Origin: an uncultured Acidimicrobiia bacterium
GTDB lineage: Bacteria; Actinomycetota; Acidimicrobiia; Acidimicrobiales; AC-14
Direction of reading: 5' to 3'
Assembly: GCA_963836205.1 (NCBI GenBank)
Contig: CAWIIV010000023.1
Span: 32,001-96,000 of the forward strand
DNA length: 64,000 nt
The notes beneath the pieces are model-generated. The model worked only from the letters and a program-made list of their open reading frames with translations, was not told where the DNA came from and ran no database searches. Shown piece after piece: positions 5,582 through 56,452 of the stretch (position 1 is the first letter of the stretch; each line of letters opens with the position of its first letter). The position numbers and the translations under genes are program-made.

Positions 5582-5610
5582 GGGCGACCTGTACCCCCCC
5601 GGAACCGGTC

Positions 5611-6549
5611 CTACGCCGACAAAAGGTCGCGCATGCTGCGGGTCGAGGCGCGCCGCAGCTTGGTCATGGCCCGGGTCTCGACCTGGCGGACGACCTCCCG
5701 GGAGAGCTCCAGCAGCTCGGCCACCTCGTCGAGCGAGCGGGAGCGGCCCCAGTCGAGCCCGAAGCGCAGACCGAGGACCTCCTGCTCCCGGGGGTCGAGG
5801 GCAGCCAGCAGCTGGCGCACCTGGCCGGGGAGCATGGCCTCGAACACGGCCTGGTCGGGCGGGGCCGACTTGGCGTCCTCCACCCGGTCGCCCAGCTCGC
5901 CGCCGTCGGTGTCGTTGATCCGCTCCGACAGCGACACCGGCTCCACCACGTGAGGGAGCAGCTCCTTGACCTTCCTGGTGGGCAGGGTGACGGCGGCGGC
6001 AACCTCGTCGGCCCGCGGCGGACGGCCGTTACGGACCTCGAAGGCGGCACTGGCCATGCGGATGGCGGTGAGCTGATCGCCGGCGTGGACCGGGAGGCGG
6101 ATGGTGCGGCTGGTGTTGGCGATCCCGCGGGTGATCGTCTGGCGGATCCACCACGTGGCGTAGGTGGAGAACTTGAACCCGCGGGACGGGTCGAAGCGCT
6201 CGACCGCCTCGATGAGCCCGAAGTTGCCCTCCTGGATGATGTCGAGGAGGGGCAGCCCGCACGACTGGTAGCGCTTGGCGATGGACACCACCAGGCGGAG
6301 GTTGGCCTGCACGAACTGGCAGGCGGCGTCGGCCCCGGCGCCGGCGACTACTTCCAACTCCTTGCGGCGGACGGGGTCGACTCCCACCCCCGCCTGCTGC
6401 AACCGGGCCGCCGCCGCCTGCCCGGCCTGGGTGAGCTGGCCCAGGCGGGCCTCGTCCTCCCTGGTCAGCAGCGGGTGCTTGCCGATGTCGTTCAGGTAGA
6501 GCTGGAGGAGGTCGTGCTCCTCGGCGCTCTGTCCTCGTCGACCGGTCAC
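5611..6549 (-). CDS. RpoD/SigB-like sigma-70 factor with region 1.2
   Basis: LYLNDIGKHPLLT, NLRLVVSIAKRY and GFKFSTYATWWIRQ motifs; region 4 HTH present. Confidence 0.92.
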   Translation of the reverse strand: MTGRRGQSAEEHDLLQLYLNDIGKHPLLTREDEARLGQLTQAGQAAAARLQQAGVGVDPVRRKELEVVAGAGADAACQFVQANLRLVVSIAKRYQSCGLPLLDIIQEGNFGLIEAVERFDPSRGFKFSTYATWWIRQTITRGIANTSRTIRLPVHAGDQLTAIRMASAAFEVRNGRPPRADEVAAAVTLPTRKVKELLPHVVEPVSLSERINDTDGGELGDRVEDAKSAPPDQAVFEAMLPGQVRQLLAALDPREQEVLGLRFGLDWGRSRSLDEVAELLELSREVVRQVETRAMTKLRRASTRSMRDLLSA

Positions 6550-48171: not shown

Positions 48172-49130
48172 GCCGGGCGGGGGTCCTGGGCGACGAGGCC
48201 TCGTTCGCCGCCCTCGCCGAGCGCCACCGGCGGGAGTTGCATGTCCACTGCTATCGCATGCTGGCCTCGTTCGACGAGGCCGAGGACGCGGTGCAGGAGA
48301 CGTTGCTGCGGGCGTGGCGGGGCCGGGAGGGCTTCGGCGGGGCCTCGTTGGCCCGGGCCTGGCTGTACCGGATCGCCACCAACGTGTGCCTCGACCTGCT
48401 CCGGCGCCGGTCGCGGCGGCTGACCGCCGTCCCGTCGCTCGCCGAGGTGCCGTGGCTCCAGCCCTACCCCGACCGCCTGCTCGACGAGGCCGGGCCCGGC
48501 CCCGACCAGCCCGACGCCGTCGCCGTCGACCGGGAGACGATCGAGCTGACCTTTCTCGCCGCCATGCAGGTGCTTCCGCCCCGGCAAAGGGCCGTCCTGA
48601 TCCTCCGGGACGTGCTTGGGTGGCCGGCGAGCGAGGCGGCCGCGCTGCTGGAAACGAGCGTCGCCGCCGCCAACAGCGCCCTCCAGCGGGCCCGGGTGAC
48701 CATGCAGGCCCACCTGCCCGAGCGGCGGACGGAGTGGTCGGCGGGCGTCCGAACCACCGAGGAGCGAGCCCTGCTCGAGCGGTTCATCGACGCCCACCAG
48801 CGCTGCGACGCGGCGGCCGCCATCGCCATCGCGGCGGAGGACATCCGGGTCACGATGCCGCCGAACCCGCACCGCTTCGAGGGGCTGGCCATGGTCGCCG
48901 CCCTCGTCGAGCGGGCGTTTGCGGAGGACACCCGCGACGGTGACTGGCGGCTGGTGCCGACGTCGGCCAACCGCATGCCCACCGCCGCCAGCTACCTGCG
49001 CCGGCCGGGCGACTCCGAGTTCCGGGCCTTCAAGCTCGACGTCCTCCGCATCCGCGACGGAGCCATCGCCGAGATCACCACGTTCGGCCCGTCGCTGTTC
49101 GAGGACTTCGGACTATCGCCGACGGCGTGA
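48168..49130 (+). CDS. ECF sigma factor with C-terminal SnoaL-like extension (SigG-like)
   Basis: HCYRML.S..EAEDAVQET, WLYRIATN, WLQPYPD, NSALQRAR and MPP motifs. Confidence 0.9.
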   Translation: MSRAGVLGDEASFAALAERHRRELHVHCYRMLASFDEAEDAVQETLLRAWRGREGFGGASLARAWLYRIATNVCLDLLRRRSRRLTAVPSLAEVPWLQPYPDRLLDEAGPGPDQPDAVAVDRETIELTFLAAMQVLPPRQRAVLILRDVLGWPASEAAALLETSVAAANSALQRARVTMQAHLPERRTEWSAGVRTTEERALLERFIDAHQRCDAAAAIAIAAEDIRVTMPPNPHRFEGLAMVAALVERAFAEDTRDGDWRLVPTSANRMPTAASYLRRPGDSEFRAFKLDVLRIRDGAIAEITTFGPSLFEDFGLSPTA

Positions 49131-49154
49131 GGGTCTGGCCGACCTGCCTTCTCT

Positions 49155-49364
49155 CTACGACGCGGCCGACCTCACGTGGTGGGCCTCGTCGAGGAGCTTG
49201 GCGATGTCGGCCCGGAGGAATCGGCGGTGGCCGCCGAGGGTCGTGATGTGCGAGATGCGTCCCTCGTCGGCCCACCGGCTCACCGTGCGGGGCGTGACGC
49301 ACAGGAGGTGGGCGACATCGCGCGGGGTCAGGTAGTCGGCGGCGAGAGTCTCGGGTGTGGACAT
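49155..49364 (-). CDS. BldC-family MerR-like HTH protein
   Basis: LTPRDVAHLLCVTPRTVSRWADEGRI...TLGGHRRF. Confidence 0.85.
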   Translation of the reverse strand: MSTPETLAADYLTPRDVAHLLCVTPRTVSRWADEGRISHITTLGGHRRFLRADIAKLLDEAHHVRSAAS

Positions 49365-49742
49365 TGCTGGGAATCCCTCGGTTTCGTCGTACTGGCGAGG
49401 ACTGGTCGAGCGGCTCGCTTTTGCACCGCGATGTTGTTTCGGCCGATCGACCCCGTGGCGTAGGGCAAACCCGAGAAATGATCTGAATTACCCAAACTCT
49501 CGGGTCGTCGTCCGCGACCCTTCGGGGCGAGGCGTGGGACCGGAGGGCGGCGACCCGGTCCAGTCGGCTTCGGGAAAACCCGTCGCCGGTCCTCGGCCGC
49601 GGGATCGCCTCCGGCCTTCTCCAGGTCGCCGATCGCTGAGGGTGTGCGCCACCGTTCGCAACGCCGGTCCGTCCCCCCGCTCGCCGCCAGTGGGACCGAA
49701 CCGGGGTGGGCTCGTCGAGCCTCCGGCTGCGTCTTGCTGCAC

Positions 49743-50534
49743 TCAGCCGAAGAGAGCGGGGATCGCCCAGACGCAGGGGTAGGTCGCCGGGAAGGCCCAC
49801 AGGAAGCCGTTGAGCCCCATGAGGAAGGCGCACGCAACGTGGAACGCGAATGCCGCGCCGAGGGTCGCGGCGACGAGCGGCCGCGGGCCGAGGACGAGCA
49901 GCGCGAAGGGCACCTCGACGAGGAGGACGGCCGCGGTCGCAGCACGGGTCATCCGTGGTCGAGCTCGGAGGAAGTCGGCGGCGCGAGCGTGGCCATGTCC
50001 GTAGGTGTCGAGGACCTGGGCGACCGCGACACCGCTTCGCCACAGGGGTGAGACGAGCTTGGCCACGCCGGCCGTCGTGTAGGACAGAGCTGCCTGGGCG
50101 GCGAGGAAGGCCACAGCCATGGCGATGCGAGCCGGCTGGGGACTCGGCAGCACGGCCGCCGCTGTTGCGGCGACGATGAGCGTGGACATCTGCTCGGCGC
50201 CGTCGCCCCCCAGGACCCGCCGGCGATGCAGCGTGATCAGGGTCACGAGACTGACACCGACGGCGGCTCTGCCCAGCGCCGTGTAGGGACCGGCGCCGAG
50301 GACGACCGCACTGGCGAGAAGTTGTGTCGCGGCGAGGGCGACGACGACGGCAGGGGGCCGGAGCACTGCGGGAAGCGCGTTCCCCCGCACCGCCAACACC
50401 ATCGTCGGACCGAAGATGCCGTCGTCGGCATAGGACCGCCGGTCGGCGATGACCTCGAGCGCGGTCAGGCAGAGACCGGCAGAGGCGATTCGGACCGAGA
50501 CATCGAGCGCGGTGGAAAGCGCGTCAGCATCCAT
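49743..50534 (-). CDS. HTTM / SdpB-like membrane protein
   Basis: Multiple TM segments; GGDGAEQM, YTTAGVAKL..PLWRSG and FH...MGLNGF.W motifs. Confidence 0.72.
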   Translation of the reverse strand: MDADALSTALDVSVRIASAGLCLTALEVIADRRSYADDGIFGPTMVLAVRGNALPAVLRPPAVVVALAATQLLASAVVLGAGPYTALGRAAVGVSLVTLITLHRRRVLGGDGAEQMSTLIVAATAAAVLPSPQPARIAMAVAFLAAQAALSYTTAGVAKLVSPLWRSGVAVAQVLDTYGHGHARAADFLRARPRMTRAATAAVLLVEVPFALLVLGPRPLVAATLGAAFAFHVACAFLMGLNGFLWAFPATYPCVWAIPALFG

Positions 50535-51060
50535 TGTCCCCGCCGGCAGCATGCCAGCCGGACAGATACACGATCCGGAGGGATCGGGATTCGCCGTGGC
50601 CGTTCGACGCGACCACCGCGAATTGCCGCTTGGCGCCTTCCGCAGCGGGCTCGATCAGCGACCACCGGAGCAACCCCAGGTACGAGCCGCTGAGCTGCTC
50701 CGCTCCGGGCGCGAAATCTGTGCTTCCCAGGGCGCGAAGGGTTCCGAGGAGGCCGGAGACGAGGTCGCTGAGGGCTTTGCTCCCGTAGCGAGACGGCTGC
50801 CAAAGCCATCGCCACGAACGTTTGGACTCGTCAAGGGCGACGGGGCGCCACCGTCCGGCGACACCGGGCACCACCTCGTCGCGCACCACCAGGTGACGGT
50901 CGTCGCGGCCCGGGTTCGGGGCGAAGAATCGCCAGCGCGGCAGCAAGGCATACCGGTCGTGACGCGAGATCCTCGACCACCGCGGCGGATCGAACTGATG
51001 GACGACGCTGGCAAGGAACCAGAGCGTGAGTACCAGCCCGACAGTGGCAGTCCAGGCCAT
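50524..51060 (-). CDS. SdpA / DUF5819-like protein
   Basis: N-terminal TM segment followed by LLPRWRFFAPNP; overlaps the HTTM gene. Confidence 0.65.
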   Translation of the reverse strand: MAWTATVGLVLTLWFLASVVHQFDPPRWSRISRHDRYALLPRWRFFAPNPGRDDRHLVVRDEVVPGVAGRWRPVALDESKRSWRWLWQPSRYGSKALSDLVSGLLGTLRALGSTDFAPGAEQLSGSYLGLLRWSLIEPAAEGAKRQFAVVASNGHGESRSLRIVYLSGWHAAGGDNGC

Positions 51061-51118
51061 CGCGAGGTGGCCGCTCAGCGCCCGCGCTCCGGGATGGCTG
51101 GCGCTTCGGGCGGTCGGA

Positions 51119-51451
51119 TCAGTCTGCCGTCGCGTCCGAGCCGTGGCCGCCCGCCTCGGACGAGCCTTCCTGGACGGCCTGCGAACGCATCTCCATGAGC
51201 TGGCCAAGGGTCGGCGCGCCCTGGAGCTGGCTGGCGAGCTCGCGGATCTGGCCAAGGATCTGGCGGTTGTGTTCGCTGAACTCGATGCCTCCCCGCCCCT
51301 CCATGCGCGTTTCGACCATGGCCATCTGGGCTTCCGCCACGCATTCGTCGTCTTCCAGCCGGTCGTCGAACGTGCGCCCTTTGGACTGCGCGACGGTGAT
51401 GAGCGCGTCGAGCGACGCCAGCTCTGCATGGGTGAGTCGTCCAGACGCCAT
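51119..51451 (-). CDS. Small acidic helical protein (110 aa), putative substrate of the SdpAB-like pair
   Basis: RBS GGGAGG then MASGRLTHAELASLDALI...APTLGQLMEMR; first gene of the three-gene run. Confidence 0.7.
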   Translation of the reverse strand: MASGRLTHAELASLDALITVAQSKGRTFDDRLEDDECVAEAQMAMVETRMEGRGGIEFSEHNRQILGQIRELASQLQGAPTLGQLMEMRSQAVQEGSSEAGGHGSDATAD

Positions 51452-51744
51452 GTCGTCCTCCCTGTTCGTGGCCGCCGCCCTGTTCGTCTTGAGGAGATGG
51501 ACCAAGCCCGCTCGATTCGCGGGTGTCGAACGATAACGCGATCAGTCTCGGGAGAGCCCGACACCGACGGGTGCCTCGTCGGCATGCGAATGCGGCACTG
51601 ATCGCCGATCGGCCGTAACGCCAACATGGAGTCGGGCGCTGCCGTGCGCCTCGACCGCCGGGACATCAAGCAGTACATCGAGGAGGGCCGCCGGCCCGCC
51701 GCTGAACCGGGTGCCGCGGCGCGAGTCTCGGCACGTCCGACGTG

Positions 51745-52075
51745 TTCACCGATCGGCAGGTTCCGAATCGCCAGCCTCGTCGGACTGAGCGAAACGACGA
51801 CACCCCGGTCGAGGTCGTCGACGATCGCCGGCAGGTTGGCGAGAAGGAGGCCGCCCGTGGTCGTCAGGCGACAACTCCGAAACCCGGCGCAGGAGGATGA
51901 CGGGCGGAAACGGCGCCGCCTAGCGCCAGCAGCATGGAGAAGTCGGTGTCGGCGGTGACGACGACGTAGCCATCGGCGACGGCCCGGTCGAAGATGACCG
52001 GTCCGGAGCGGCAGCAGATCCAGTTCGCCTAAGTGGACGATGTCGTACCCGGCATCGGAGAGCAACCCAACGGGA
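51745..52075 (-). pseudogene. DUF5615 PIN-like (VapC45-type) gene remnant
   Basis: Across frames: LSDAGYDIVHL, IFDRAVADGYVVVTADTDFSMLLA and LLANLPAIVDDLDRGVVVSL...IRNLPI. Confidence 0.65.
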
Positions 52076-52094
52076 CGGGGGAACGTCCTCCTGC

Positions 52095-52400
52095 TCGGCC
52101 AAGCGTTCGTCGTCCCGCAGCTCGTAGTGGACGTTGAGCGCCGGGCTGCCGTAGGACGGGTACGGGTCGAGGCGGACGCCGTGGTCACGGCACAGCTTGT
52201 GGAAGCGCGGTTGGAGGCCGAGCTCGAAGCGCATCGGTCCCCACTCGGCGGTGAACCGGCCGAGGAAGCGGGACGACTGGATCCGCCCGCCGGCCCGGTC
52301 GAGGGACTCGAGCAAGGTGACGTCGTGGCCCCGGGAAGCCAGTTCGTCGACGCCTACAGCCCGACGATGCCCGCTCCGACAACCACGATGCCCGCCGGCC
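52095..52400 (-). pseudogene. Flavin amine oxidase N-terminal remnant
   Basis: IVVVGAGIVGL, then stop, then RGHDVTLLE..RAGGRI...EWGPMRF in another frame; truncated. Confidence 0.65.
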
Positions 52401-52568
52401 CGCGCCGAAAACGGCCTGCGGCCGCGTCGTCGGTGGGATAGGCAACCACGGTAGATGGGCGGCAACGGGCCGGCCGTGGATGCGCACGCGAATCGAGAAC
52501 CCCAGGGCTTGACACCCCCGGAGACGCCGTGATTGTGTCGAGGAAACGGTGGAAGGCGGAGGTGCGGG

Positions 52569-54116
52569 ATGTGGAAGAGGCGGGCACGCGGGCGCGGGAT
52601 GCTGGTCGTGGCGGGAGCGATGCTGGCGGCGACGTTGGGGCCGGTGACAGCTGCCGACGCAACGAGTACGAGTCAGGCGGCCGGCGGACAGGGCCAGGTG
52701 CAACTCCTGGGGCAGATGTTCCTCGCCCTGCGGGCGGCCCAGTTCGACCGGACCATCGACTTCGGGCCCTTCGAGGACGTGTGCCCGGGGGCGTCATTCT
52801 GCGCGGTCCCGGCCCGGCCGGTGAAGTACATGCCAAACATCGACCTGGCGATCATCGAGCTCGATCAACAGGGCCAGGCGACGGCGGTGGCGAACGTCCT
52901 TCTCTCACGGGACTATCCCGCCGGGCTGCCCCTGCCTATCGACCGGGTGGCGGGTCCCGCGGGCAGTAACGGGGTGAGCGTCGTCCGCTGGCGGCGGTGG
53001 GATATCGACCGTTACAACGGCGGCACGTTCTCCCAGGACGACGGCCACCAGCTCACCCAGAAGGGGTGGAAGACCAATCCACCGCTCACGGCGGCGGACA
53101 ACATCGTCCCCGGGCGGTTGGGGACCCCGATCGACTTCATGGCGCCCTACCCGGCGTCACTGTTCAAGATCATCGTGGCCTTCCGGATCATGCGCCTGGT
53201 CGACTTCGGCCAGCTGAGCCTCGACCAGACCTATACCTACAACCCGGTCGCCTCGTTGGCGGCCGAGGGCAAGCAGCTCGACCAGCCCCTGGAGCGCCCG
53301 GTCGGCGTCGGGGTGGCGACGGCCGCGGCGGTGGCCGCGGAGGGAGAGACGCGGACCATCCGGGACTGGTTGGACCCGATGATCACTGTCTCGAGCAACA
53401 ACGCGGCGCGGGCCATGCTCAAGCTCCTCCACGACCGCAACGACCTCCCGGCCATGCACGCCGAGCTCCGGGGCCTGGGGCTGGGAACCCTCCAGGTGAA
53501 CGGCACCGACCCCGGCACCGGCGGTAACTGGCAGCCGGGCAGCATCCACATGACATCACTCGACACCGCCCGCCTGCTGTGGCTCATCGAGGGTGGGGCG
53601 GGGACGCTCTGGCTCCGTCCCGACGGACGGCCGGTCCTGGCGTCGCTGCTGTCCTCCAGCTCCCGCAGCTTCCTCAAGGGATTGCTCGACGACCAGGCGT
53701 TCCACGAGGCGCTGAGCACGGGGAGCCTGTGCGGCAAGGCCAACGTCCGGCCCGGTATCCCCGCCCTGGTGCCCGCCCGCTGGATCAACCCGGACGGCAC
53801 CGAGACGGCCGGCGGCTTCCCCTACGGCCAGGACGTCCGGCCCTGCAACGCGGCGGCCGAGGTGGTGTTCGGGCACAAGACGGGGCTCACGTTCAACTAC
53901 GGGTCGAATGCGGGGATCGTGCGGTCGCTGCCGGGCAAGCCGGAACGCCGCTACGTGATCGCGTTCAACTCGAGCCTCGGCTACCGCTACACGGACCCCG
54001 CCTTCGCCTCCCGCTCGTCCTACCCGTGCTACGACCCGGTCGGAGGCATCTGTTACACCCAGCGCATCCCGGCGATGGCGAAGCAGCTCGACGACTACAT
54101 CAAGTCGACTCCGTAG
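52569..54116 (+). CDS. Secreted serine hydrolase, class A beta-lactamase-like
   Basis: Signal peptide; PASLFK (SxxK), SSN (SxN) and HKTG motifs. Confidence 0.8.
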   Translation: MWKRRARGRGMLVVAGAMLAATLGPVTAADATSTSQAAGGQGQVQLLGQMFLALRAAQFDRTIDFGPFEDVCPGASFCAVPARPVKYMPNIDLAIIELDQQGQATAVANVLLSRDYPAGLPLPIDRVAGPAGSNGVSVVRWRRWDIDRYNGGTFSQDDGHQLTQKGWKTNPPLTAADNIVPGRLGTPIDFMAPYPASLFKIIVAFRIMRLVDFGQLSLDQTYTYNPVASLAAEGKQLDQPLERPVGVGVATAAAVAAEGETRTIRDWLDPMITVSSNNAARAMLKLLHDRNDLPAMHAELRGLGLGTLQVNGTDPGTGGNWQPGSIHMTSLDTARLLWLIEGGAGTLWLRPDGRPVLASLLSSSSRSFLKGLLDDQAFHEALSTGSLCGKANVRPGIPALVPARWINPDGTETAGGFPYGQDVRPCNAAAEVVFGHKTGLTFNYGSNAGIVRSLPGKPERRYVIAFNSSLGYRYTDPAFASRSSYPCYDPVGGICYTQRIPAMAKQLDDYIKSTP

Positions 54117-55030: not shown

Positions 55031-56452
55031 GAGAAATAGTCAAGACCTGTGGATCGGATTCCCGTCCGACTACGCGGCGGCTCCCTGATCCTGCTGGTTG
55101 GGGCGCTCGACCATCACCCCCTTCTCGAACTTGGTGCCGGCCCGCACCAGGGCCACGAGATTAGGGCCGTTCACCGCTCGCCACCGGTCCTGGGCGGACT
55201 CGATGAGCTTGAAGGCCATGGCCAGCCCGGCCACCCGGGATCCGGGGCCCTTGGTCACCTTGGTCCGCAACCGCACGGTGGCGAAGGTGGACTCGATGGG
55301 GTTGGTCGTCTTGAGGTGGATCCAGTGCTCGGCCGGGAAGTCGAAGAAGGCGAGCAGCGTCTCGGTGTCGTCGACGACCTTGGCCACGGCCTTGGGGTAC
55401 TTGGCCGCGTAGGCCTCGGCGAAGCCGCTGATGGCGGTGATGGCGTGGTCGCGGTCCTCGGCGTCACGGATGTCGGCCAGCATGCGCCGGGCGCTGCGCT
55501 GGGCCGACTTCGGCAGGGCGGACAACACGTTGGCCACCTTGTGGACCCAGCAGCGCTGGGTACCGGTGGCGGGGAACACCTCCCGCAGAGCCCCCCAGAA
55601 CCCGAGGGCACCGTCGCCCACGGCCAGCACCGGGGCCCGCATCCCACGGCGGCGGAGGTCCCGCAGTACGTCGGACCAGCTCTCCGTCGACTCCCGGAAG
55701 CCGTCCTCGATCGCCACCAGCTCCTTGGTGCCGTCGGCCCGCACACCCACGATGACCAGGGCACATAGCCGTTCTTCCTCGAGTCGGACGTTGAAATGGA
55801 TGCCGTCGGCCCACACGTAGACGTAGTCGACGGCGGAGAGATCCCGGTGGGCGAAGGCGGTCCGTTCGTCCTGCCACTGGCGGGTCAGACGGGTGATCAC
55901 CGAAGCCGACAGGCCGGCGGCGGAGCCGAAGAACTCGCCCAGGGCCGGGCTGAAGTCGCCGCTCGACATCCCGTGCAGGTACATCAGGGGCAGCACCTCG
56001 GCCACCTTGGGGCTCTTGCGGCACCACGGGGCCACGATGGCCGAGCGGAACCGGAGTCGGTCGCCGGTGTCGGGGTCGAGGCGGCGGTCGTCCACCCTCG
56101 GCGCCTCGATCTCGATCCCGCCCGCAGCGGTGGTGATGGTGCGGGCCTCGGCGTGGCCGTTGCGAACCACGCGCCGCCGACCACGCTCGTCGAGCTCGCC
56201 GGCCATCGCTTCGATGTACGCGTCGACTTCGGCTTCGAGGGCGGCGGCCAGCATCCGTCGGGCACCCTCGCGGACGATCTCGTCGAGCCCGGCCGTCAGC
56301 TCCGCGCGGGCGTCATCATCGGTGACTACTGTCAACATCGGCGTTCCTTCCTCGCCGGCGTTCCACCGCCAGCGACTACTCGTTTTGGTCAACGAGGAAG
56401 GTACGCCGCGCCCTCGAACGGGTGGGTGATCCACAGGTTCTGGTCATAACTC
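55031..56452 (-). mobile_element. IS256-family insertion sequence
   Basis: 25-bp imperfect IRs (GAGAAATAGTCAAGACCTGTGGATC / GAGTTATGACCAGAACCTGTGGATC); 9-bp TSD GAGATTCGA at 55022-55030 and 56453-56461. Confidence 0.93.
55070..56338 (-). CDS. IS256 (Mutator-family) transposase
   Basis: RNG, YVWADG, RES..SW, VGDGALG, QRCWVHK and TTNPIES motifs. Confidence 0.95.
   Translation of the reverse strand: MLTVVTDDDARAELTAGLDEIVREGARRMLAAALEAEVDAYIEAMAGELDERGRRRVVRNGHAEARTITTAAGGIEIEAPRVDDRRLDPDTGDRLRFRSAIVAPWCRKSPKVAEVLPLMYLHGMSSGDFSPALGEFFGSAAGLSASVITRLTRQWQDERTAFAHRDLSAVDYVYVWADGIHFNVRLEEERLCALVIVGVRADGTKELVAIEDGFRESTESWSDVLRDLRRRGMRAPVLAVGDGALGFWGALREVFPATGTQRCWVHKVANVLSALPKSAQRSARRMLADIRDAEDRDHAITAISGFAEAYAAKYPKAVAKVVDDTETLLAFFDFPAEHWIHLKTTNPIESTFATVRLRTKVTKGPGSRVAGLAMAFKLIESAQDRWRAVNGPNLVALVRAGTKFEKGVMVERPNQQDQGAAA

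Follow-up and report, generated by a model that had tools for sequence, protein, structure and literature searches.

What does a small acidic protein do when its gene stands directly ahead of the genes for two membrane proteins, one of which is modelled with the fold of a vitamin K-dependent carboxylase core? This question is raised by three genes at positions 49743-51451 of a 64,000-nucleotide (nt) stretch of DNA, hereafter the window, from contig CAWIIV010000023.1 of an uncultured Acidimicrobiia bacterium. The same three genes stand together in every genome in which we found them, and the small protein is conserved at both ends and variable in its centre. They may form a quinone-dependent modification module of which the small protein would be the client, most likely the substrate, and we give this reading an even chance of being right. 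The features on which the argument draws are as follows.

51119..51451, minus strand: gene 1, a small acidic protein of 110 amino acids (aa), ATG start, from translation
51377..51436, minus strand: N-terminal helix motif of the small protein, L-[TS]-x-x-E-L-x-x-L-D-x-L-I-x-x-A-Q-x-x-G, residues 6-25
51278..51376, minus strand: variable, mostly acidic centre of the small protein, including C36, residues 26-58
51164..51277, minus strand: C-terminal part of the small protein, SEHDxxILxQIxELAxQL ... [PT]-T-L-x-x-L-I-E-x-R, residues 59-96
51457..51462, minus strand: GGGAGG box of Shine-Dalgarno type, 5 nt ahead of the gene 1 ATG, read from the sequence
50524..51060, minus strand: gene 2, a single-pass membrane protein of 178 aa
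49743..50534, minus strand: gene 3, an HTTM-type membrane protein of 263 aa
50058..50060, minus strand: codon of K159 in the AGVAKL motif of gene 3, candidate counterpart of the GGCX general base K218

A first-pass annotation of the locus had described three genes on one strand, and its gene limits stand unchanged. The strings that it quoted from the small protein (LTHAELASLDALI, DDRLEDDECVAE and PTLGQLMEMR) were all present in the gene 1 translation, as were GGDGAEQM and YTTAGVAKL..W in the gene 3 protein. Genes 1 and 2 are separated by a gap of 58 nt, while genes 2 and 3 overlap by 11 nt. The start of gene 1 agrees with the N-termini of its homologues. The start used for gene 3 is that of the gene call in the database (P0002); from another ATG, at 50552, the protein would be 269 aa long. 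The region 49743-51451 has a G+C content of ~70%.

To begin with, we asked how strictly the three genes are linked. A scan of one genome per species yielded nine loci outside the window genome, whose hosts comprise one acidobacterium, two Chloroflexota, five Actinomycetota genera and one betaproteobacterium. A gene-2 homologue lay directly upstream of a gene-3 homologue in 9/9 of these loci, and an open reading frame (ORF) of 94-104 aa lay upstream of the gene-2 homologue, again in 9/9 (seven detected by tblastn, the other two by reading the ORFs). One of the loci (L008) comes from a genome flagged as unpublished; when it is left out, the counts are 8/8. Together with the window, the small protein is thus encoded directly upstream of the pair in 10/10 genomes from four phyla, always in the same order. 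The reverse linkage, from the small protein to the pair, was taken from whole-genome profile searches of the ten genomes. A profile of 48 family members gave one match per genome in the nine genomes, each at the cassette, and a ten-member profile gave a single match in the window's own genome, likewise at the cassette. The link between the small ORF and SdpAB-like genes, on which the first-pass annotation had staked its reading, therefore held in all ten genomes, and small ORFs standing apart from such genes were not encountered in them. Because the same three genes recur in the same order in all nine other loci, the arrangement is far beyond chance.

The genes beyond the three differ at every locus, the window and the nine others alike. 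The ten-member profile had no match in 60 other relatives of the host, seven of them of the same genus, although many of these genomes are incomplete. Since the flanking genes differ everywhere and the profile matches are scattered, the cassette appears self-contained and patchy in distribution. A tree of gene-2 proteins does not track taxonomy. This was a quick maximum-likelihood tree in which 75 of 90 rows were used, after removal of partial and identical ones, and for which the careful search was left unfinished, with support expressed by the Shimodaira-Hasegawa-like approximate likelihood ratio test (SH-aLRT). Within it, the window belongs to a group of 22 rows with support 92; the small protein is present in 21 of them, and the last one lacks upstream DNA. 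The cassette is best read as a self-contained, horizontally spread three-gene module.

A wider sample was obtained by scanning metagenomes with the gene 2 alignment, which turned up 127 relatives; from these we retained the best 80 loci, several of which are near-copies of each other. An HTTM-like gene was present in 63/64 of the loci with enough downstream DNA, and in 59/64 it was adjacent and on the same strand. The window-type small protein was found upstream in 25/70 of the loci with enough upstream DNA. Several loci depart from the usual arrangement. In two near-identical ones (L076, 2247-3029, and L077, 3021-3803), the HTTM-like gene is on the opposite strand and convergent with the gene-2 homologue, and in two others (L041 and L082) it lies 0.4-1.3 kilobases (kb) further downstream. 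In the betaproteobacterial genome locus (L009), a gene for a DCC1-like thiol-disulfide oxidoreductase (5597-6190, plus strand) directly follows the HTTM-like gene; a DCC1-like domain is fused to HTTM in a published example from Melghirimyces (bioRxiv 10.64898/2026.08.19.745780).

Next, we asked what kind of protein gene 3 encodes. A word-indexed search of 5.8 billion proteins returned 32 homologue clusters. Among 29 aligned homologues, which share 33-46% identity with the window protein, 17 matched PF05090 at E<=0.1, the best at 2.5e-7, and four matched the related LMF1; by transitive homology, gene 3 is assigned to the HTTM family. Its AlphaFold2 model was of high quality, with a predicted local distance difference test score (pLDDT) of 94.6 and a predicted template modelling score (pTM) of 0.91. 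When this model was compared with the PDB by Foldseek, the top 15 matches were all human GGCX, with TMq values of 0.56-0.68, while the next matches dropped to ~0.2. VIA-align superposed 241 residues with a Z score of 17.3 and a root-mean-square deviation of 4.2 Å, residues 1-263 of the model being collinear with GGCX 54-318, and the best chain other than GGCX reached a Z score of 9.0. When the PDB was searched by sequence, with the gene 3 profile and two homologues as queries, no GGCX match came up, only chance ribosomal rows. As modelled, gene 3 corresponds, in minimal form, to the transmembrane core of vitamin K-dependent carboxylase, and the relation to HTTM and carboxylase proteins that had been proposed for the third protein is borne out by both the PF05090 matches of its homologues and the GGCX fold.

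The residues that are invariant in 29 gene 3 sequences include D111, Q147, Y152, K159, W165, E207, F231, H232 and F244. The general base of GGCX is K218, with W223 stacked on it and D263 at its side; F286 makes packing contacts with the naphthoquinone, while CO2 is held by F299 (PMC12647623). A collinear offset of 55-59 places K159, W165, E207, F231 and F244 at or near K218, W223, D263, F286 and F299, respectively. In addition, a published model of a DUF5819-HTTM complex has conserved Lys189, Trp195 and Phe273 at the modelled menaquinol (bioRxiv 10.64898/2026.08.19.745780), and the spacing of six residues between K159 and W165 equals that between Lys189 and Trp195. From the collinear aligned ranges and this Lys/Trp/Phe set, we infer that K159 would correspond to K218. 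The genome encodes MenD (439.9 bits), and therefore menaquinone is probably available.

The gene 2 protein has an N-terminal hydrophobic helix at ~residues 2-20 and the motif LLPRWRFFAPNPG (LLPRW-x-FFAPNPG). It had been labelled SdpA-like on the strength of this motif, and the label did not survive profile comparison. The Pfam SdpA model (PF17418) matched neither the window protein nor 10 homologues (E<=1), nor any protein of the genome (E<=10), and the NCBIfam SdpA and SdpB models gave no match. A different relationship is suggested by DUF5819 (PF19136), which matched gene 2 with E 0.03 and 15.3 bits, below the cut-off of 27.1, and matched 3/10 of its homologues, the best with E 0.0062. We gathered six canonical DUF5819 ORFs, each at its own locus, from 5/201 genomes of the phylum, and each of these genes adjoins a larger HTTM gene. 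The gene-2 profile ranked all six first, with E from 1.7e-4 to 0.014, and hhalign of gene 2 against them gave a probability of 65% and E 5.9e-5, covering only 46 columns around W-x-F-F-A-P-N-P. A single-sequence homologue search with gene 2 returned only five clusters, and the ESM Atlas returned unnamed clusters and one cluster that is 12% DUF5819 (score 0.84).

The AlphaFold2 model of gene 2 was middling (pLDDT 80) and comprised the N-terminal helix, beta hairpins and two helices. Foldseek found nothing similar at E<=0.001, the best Z score among 48,161 chains in VIA was 3.8, and the GGCX luminal domain did not come up in these fold searches; with a query of pLDDT 80, the results point neither to a new fold nor to a difference. 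A weak signal thus marks gene 2 as a putative distant DUF5819-like partner of HTTM proteins. The earlier idea that the second protein is a single-pass partner of the sort found alongside bacterial HTTM proteins holds up, with a DUF5819 signal that is weak (E 0.03; hhalign 65%). DUF5819 and HTTM proteins are predicted to form a GGCX-like complex, in which the DUF5819 helix would replace one transmembrane helix of GGCX and the DUF5819 domain would serve as its clamp (bioRxiv 10.64898/2026.08.19.745780).

On which side of the membrane would such a pair act? In the gene 3 family, the sum of conserved Lys and Arg is ~7.4 on the side of K159, the GGDG loop and the cap, against 1.7 on the opposite side. 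In gene-2 proteins, the count of Lys and Arg is 3.9 over the 23 residues that follow the helix and 0.57 ahead of it. On these charge counts alone, the positive-inside rule predicts a cytoplasmic location for both the catalytic face and the gene 2 domain. A cytoplasmic face fits the client reading, since a small protein that lacks a signal peptide would be found there. Linaridin precursors, too, are not known to carry a secretion signal, and the pathway intermediate of the malonomycin enzyme MloH would be cytoplasmic; with these two substrates on that side, an inward-facing site would be plausible for bacterial HTTM proteins.

We then turned to the small protein itself. Its isoelectric point is 4.59, with 19 Asp and Glu residues versus 9 Lys and Arg, and it contains a single Cys, C36. 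No family in Pfam, NCBIfam or PADLOC matched it, and the ESM Atlas returned nothing usable. An exhaustive HMMER profile search of 1.84 billion representatives gave 67 matches at E<=1e-3, 37 of them at E<=1e-10. The matches are nearly all 78-132 aa long; the exceptions are a few long repetitive proteins and one form of 230 aa. By sequence comparison, the small protein is a member of a rare family of ~95-105 aa that is predicted to be predominantly helical. The 230-aa representative (P0038) carries the small-protein domain at residues 3-102, followed by ~130 unrelated residues, and is either a fusion or a read-through gene call. A search for longer or fused forms found none, which is weak evidence. 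The best 19-residue Kyte-Doolittle window of the small protein scores 0.68, compared with 1.85 for the gene 2 helix. Accordingly, the first-pass annotation was right that the protein has neither a signal peptide nor a hydrophobic toxin segment, and it has no transmembrane segment either. A hydropathy scan of its first 35 residues in 10-residue windows is uninformative, as it picks up the amphipathic conserved helix.

Conservation is concentrated at the two ends of the small protein. In 48 family sequences L6, L11, D15, I18, L85 and R89 are nearly invariant, and the mean consensus frequency is 0.57 in the N-terminal helix (residues 5-26), 0.34 in the centre (27-58) and 0.50 in the C-terminal part (59-96). 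The centre is 22-38 aa long in the family, with a median Asp plus Glu fraction of 0.18, and no centre column is invariant or nearly so in the 48-sequence alignment. The first-pass annotation had proposed a leader-core-follower precursor with a single-Cys, Glu/Asp-rich centre. In outline this description is right: the ends are conserved, the centre varies, C36 is the sole Cys and the centre of the window protein is mostly acidic. The implied target is another matter, for Cys is absent from 34/48 members, and conservation singles out no Cys and no individual Glu. The centre is also not hypervariable, as its conservation falls only moderately below that of the ends. In two distant family members, P0085 and P0095, we found a 19-residue hydrophobic centre rich in Thr, Val, Ala and Ile and containing a Cys, with Kyte-Doolittle scores of 1.85 and 2.19; we take these centres to be similar to linaridin cores.

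We also examined co-oriented ORFs upstream of the pair in other clades, with starts chosen by eye. Some encode proteins of 72 aa ending in GGEGLS-x-x-E-L-x-x-x-R, and others encode proteins of 250-400 aa with a hydrophobic segment. Upstream proteins of ~200 aa (L036 1660-2271, L037 1615-2397, L044 1747-2379 and L068 338-967) show, by eye, an 11-residue repeat of the V-N-A-V-E-N type, followed by an A-S-A-x-Q-L-I-Q-A-R-R motif and a charged tail. In one clade of the pair (L064 1-534, L071 1263-2450 and L072 2-319), the upstream ORFs encode proteins with long Pro-Glu (PEPEPE...) repeats that end in R-P-S-x-x-x-L-L-x-Q-R-E.

Many of these otherwise different upstream proteins end in a motif resembling T-L-G-Q-L-M-E-M-R of the window protein. 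To quantify this likeness, a C-terminal profile was made from the last 27 columns of the 48-member alignment, and scores were compared with the 99th percentile of 1462 control ORFs. The best upstream ORF exceeded this percentile in 14/45 distant loci, where ~1 would be expected by chance, and a profile of the N-terminal helix exceeded it in 8/45. A regular expression, written post hoc, matched 29/70 upstream ORFs as opposed to 24/2441 control ORFs. The client reading is favoured because the ends of the small protein are conserved, its centre varies, and sister clades carry very different upstream proteins. It also has precedent, since those bacterial HTTM proteins for which genetic or biochemical evidence exists, such as SdpAB, LinG and MloH, act on a locally encoded peptide or product.

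How, then, might the module work? Gene 3 would be a minimal HTTM enzyme, consisting of the quinone-binding transmembrane core without the luminal and C-terminal domains of the carboxylase, and gene 2 would probably add the missing extra helix and a domain that, like the clamp, holds the substrate. The small protein would dock, through the conserved helices at its two ends, on the side of the pair that is positively charged and would face the cytoplasm. A base-dependent modification somewhere in the small protein would then be driven by reduced menaquinone and O2. As to the chemistry, carboxylation of Asp or Glu has precedent in GGCX and MloH, and dehydration, as in linaridins, or other carbanion chemistry would be equally open.

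The cassette shares parts with several known systems, and the differences are as instructive as the similarities. The closest is the DUF5819 and HTTM pair of Melghirimyces thermohalophilus, described from an AlphaFold 3 complex (bioRxiv 10.64898/2026.08.19.745780). There, too, a single-pass protein with an N-terminal helix and a domain of ~150 aa has an HTTM neighbour, and the two together are reported to resemble a split vitamin K-dependent carboxylase, as would be the case here. However, the HTTM protein of the window is far smaller (263 aa) and has neither the DCC1-like domain nor the extra helices, and a dedicated small-protein gene precedes the pair here, while none does so at the six canonical loci. 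In human GGCX (PDB 9l6q and others), the whole of gene 3 superposes on residues 54-318, with an identity of just 14-16%. The layout of GGCX includes luminal clamp and C-terminal domains (PMC12647623), which gene 3 lacks, and the candidate client shows no likeness to a propeptide or a Gla domain. Among bacterial HTTM enzymes, MloH of malonomycin biosynthesis contains a DUF5819-like region and acts on a locally encoded pathway intermediate, an example of such an enzyme carboxylating acidic residues in an organism other than an animal (cited in bioRxiv 10.64898/2026.08.19.745780). As described there, MloH is one fused polypeptide within a polyketide synthase-nonribosomal peptide synthetase cluster, whereas here the protein is split, no such cluster is present and the candidate client is ribosomal.

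Two bacterial maturation systems resemble the cassette in their gene content. In the SdpAB-SdpC and YitPOM systems of Bacillus subtilis, an HTTM-type membrane protein and a small accessory one are encoded with the protein that they mature, and the client SdpC is conserved in one part and variable in another, like the small protein (PMC6818787). SdpC is a protein of 203 aa with a secretion signal and a hydrophobic toxin segment, its gene follows sdpAB, and the sdpRI immunity genes are near (PMC6818787). By contrast, the candidate client gene of the window comes first and encodes an acidic, soluble protein without a signal peptide, and no immunity gene accompanies it. Membership in the SdpABC group, which the first-pass annotation had implied, is not supported, given the unmatched SdpA Pfam and SdpA/SdpB NCBIfam models, the lack of a secreted precursor of the SdpC type and the different gene order. 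In linaridin biosynthesis, the HTTM protein LinG is required to modify the leader-bearing precursor LinA, and an ABC transporter encoded in the cluster exports the product (PMC9927463; bioRxiv 10.1101/2020.07.09.196543). The cassette has no LinE alpha/beta hydrolase, transporter, PxxxTP motif or Thr-rich C-terminal core, and its client would be ~100 aa long with conserved sequence on both sides. Membership in a linaridin cluster was rejected, as a LinE-type hydrolase and a transporter are not conserved in the window and the nine loci and the motif is absent.

The surroundings of the cassette bear on some of these comparisons. Among the neighbours of the window and the nine other loci, no protease, transporter or immunity gene is conserved beside the cassette, as had been noted at the outset for immunity genes. 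PADLOC matched none of the three proteins to a defence family. A scan of the window at 49000-52000 for promoter and terminator consensus sequences found none, and a listing of sequencing runs contained no RNA run, only small shares in DNA runs of soil metagenomes.

Approximately 380 nt downstream of the cassette lies a gene for a 69-aa helix-turn-helix protein of the BldC family or excisionase type (49155-49364, minus strand), which scored 72.7 bits against NF033787, just below the cut-off of 77, and matched PADLOC mad1 at 3.6e-8. It was considered as a member of the system and rejected, as it was not found beside the cassette in the nine other loci. Convergent with it is a gene for an extracytoplasmic function (ECF)-type sigma factor with a C-terminal SnoaL_2 domain (48180-49130, plus strand). 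Immediately upstream of the cassette is a stretch of decayed DNA (51505-52465, minus strand). It contains a 181-aa ORF that matches a flavin amine oxidase model only at positions 9-103 of 443, and a 27-residue remnant of DUF5615 (PIN-like) at 51918-51998, with E 0.0058, that seems frameshifted on inspection by eye. Between the cassette and a Mutator-family transposase gene (55070-56434, minus strand; E 3.7e-65), which is ~3.6 kb away, are a gene of the class A-like beta-lactamase family (52533-54116) and a GNAT acetyltransferase gene (from 54195). The area around the beta-lactamase-family, GNAT and transposase genes looks like a variable, island-like stretch.

Several observations weigh against the small protein being a client of a quinone-dependent pair. 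The centre holds no conserved acidic, Cys, Ser or Thr residue, and no target site can be named. The two near-invariant polar residues, D15 and R89, could be a structural pair, and the conserved Ser/Thr that opens the C-terminal motif resembles a helix N-cap. Moreover, with a mean column identity of 47%, compared with 50% and 47% for the two membrane proteins, the small protein shows about the same overall conservation as the enzymes, which would also fit a structural subunit. It could accordingly be a third subunit that is not a substrate (a regulator, lid or assembly factor), the complex acting on something else, be it a lipid, quinone or other small molecule or the product of a distant gene. 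Such a role would account for a centre that lacks a candidate target residue and for a protein that resembles a folded helical protein rather than a peptide, and the published DUF5819-HTTM model has just one side of the GGCX clamp and a usual substrate channel that is apparently blocked (bioRxiv 10.64898/2026.08.19.745780), so that a further subunit could have room. However, canonical DUF5819-HTTM pairs do without a small protein, none being present at six loci, and the upstream proteins of other clades differ greatly in size and make-up, which is unusual for a subunit and usual for clients. We regard a subunit as a serious contender that is, on balance, rather unlikely. Further points count against the client reading from other directions. 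Just 25/70 testable metagenome loci carry the window-type small protein, the C-terminal motif was undetected in 31/45 loci that lack that protein, and neither the protein nor the motif was found at the six canonical DUF5819-HTTM loci. The gene 3 protein itself has no Pfam match (E<=1) or NCBIfam match, a search of the whole genome with PF05090 gave no match at E<=10, and the gene 2 model is middling. Finally, the quinone site of human GGCX is in the luminal leaflet (PMC12647623), and the cytoplasmic orientation predicted here, for which the positive-inside rule is the sole ground, would be opposite to it.

Another possibility is that the cassette matures a toxin or a peptide that is made by ribosomes and modified after translation (a RiPP), as SdpABC and the linaridin enzymes do, with the small protein as a leader-core-follower precursor that is cleaved and whose product is exported. 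HTTM proteins are needed for the maturation of both the SDP toxin and linaridins (PMC6818787; PMC9927463), conserved ends around a variable centre do resemble a leader and a follower, and the hydrophobic, Cys-containing centres of P0085 and P0095 would suit such a product, as would a patchy cassette with decayed genes and a transposase nearby. Yet the apparatus for cleavage, export and immunity is not conserved at the ten loci, nor is a LinE-type hydrolase; the window protein lacks a signal peptide, a PxxxTP motif and a Thr-rich core; and the SdpA, SdpB and SdpC models are unmatched. A RiPP precursor in general, as the first-pass annotation had envisaged, is disfavoured by a centre that is not hypervariable and by the lack of a linked protease or exporter, and we consider a maturation system of this kind very unlikely. 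It is also conceivable that the pair serves in membrane redox reactions or lipid modification and that the small gene is merely co-transcribed with it, without a direct link in function. HTTM proteins are part of a wider group of quinone-linked membrane proteins, and the DCC1-like neighbour in the betaproteobacterium, together with the published fusion of the same domain to HTTM, would point in this direction. Against this stand the one-to-one linkage and fixed order of the three genes over four phyla, while all other neighbours change, and we hold mere co-transcription to be most improbable. A quinone-dependent module with the small protein as its client therefore remains the reading that we prefer, at the even chance given above.

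Part of this ground is already in print, namely SdpAB-SdpC, the linaridin proteins LinG, LinE and LinL, MloH and the predicted DUF5819-HTTM complex. In full-text literature on HTTM, DUF5819 or SdpB combined with RiPP or precursor terms, we found no description of the small-protein family or of the three-gene form. Bacterial HTTM proteins are numerous, and their roles are known in outline for a few, those in SDP toxin, linaridin and malonomycin biosynthesis; in none of these cases is the chemistry of the small split HTTM forms understood. A compact module with a soluble candidate client that is easy to express makes the role of minimal bacterial carboxylase relatives directly assayable. It could reveal carboxylation, dehydration or other chemistry, as well as how a DUF5819-like partner recognizes a client. 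Should the small protein prove to be only a subunit, the cassette would still be a tidy new subfamily, of modest interest. In the boldest form of the client reading, which we consider unlikely, the small protein would be the first natural protein substrate to be identified for a minimal split carboxylase relative working at the cytoplasmic face, its modification, by carboxylation of Asp or Glu or by other carbanion chemistry, would be driven by menaquinone, and clade-specific clients would be recognized through shared terminal helices. If the predicted cytoplasmic orientation is true, vitamin K-type chemistry would extend to intracellular proteins.

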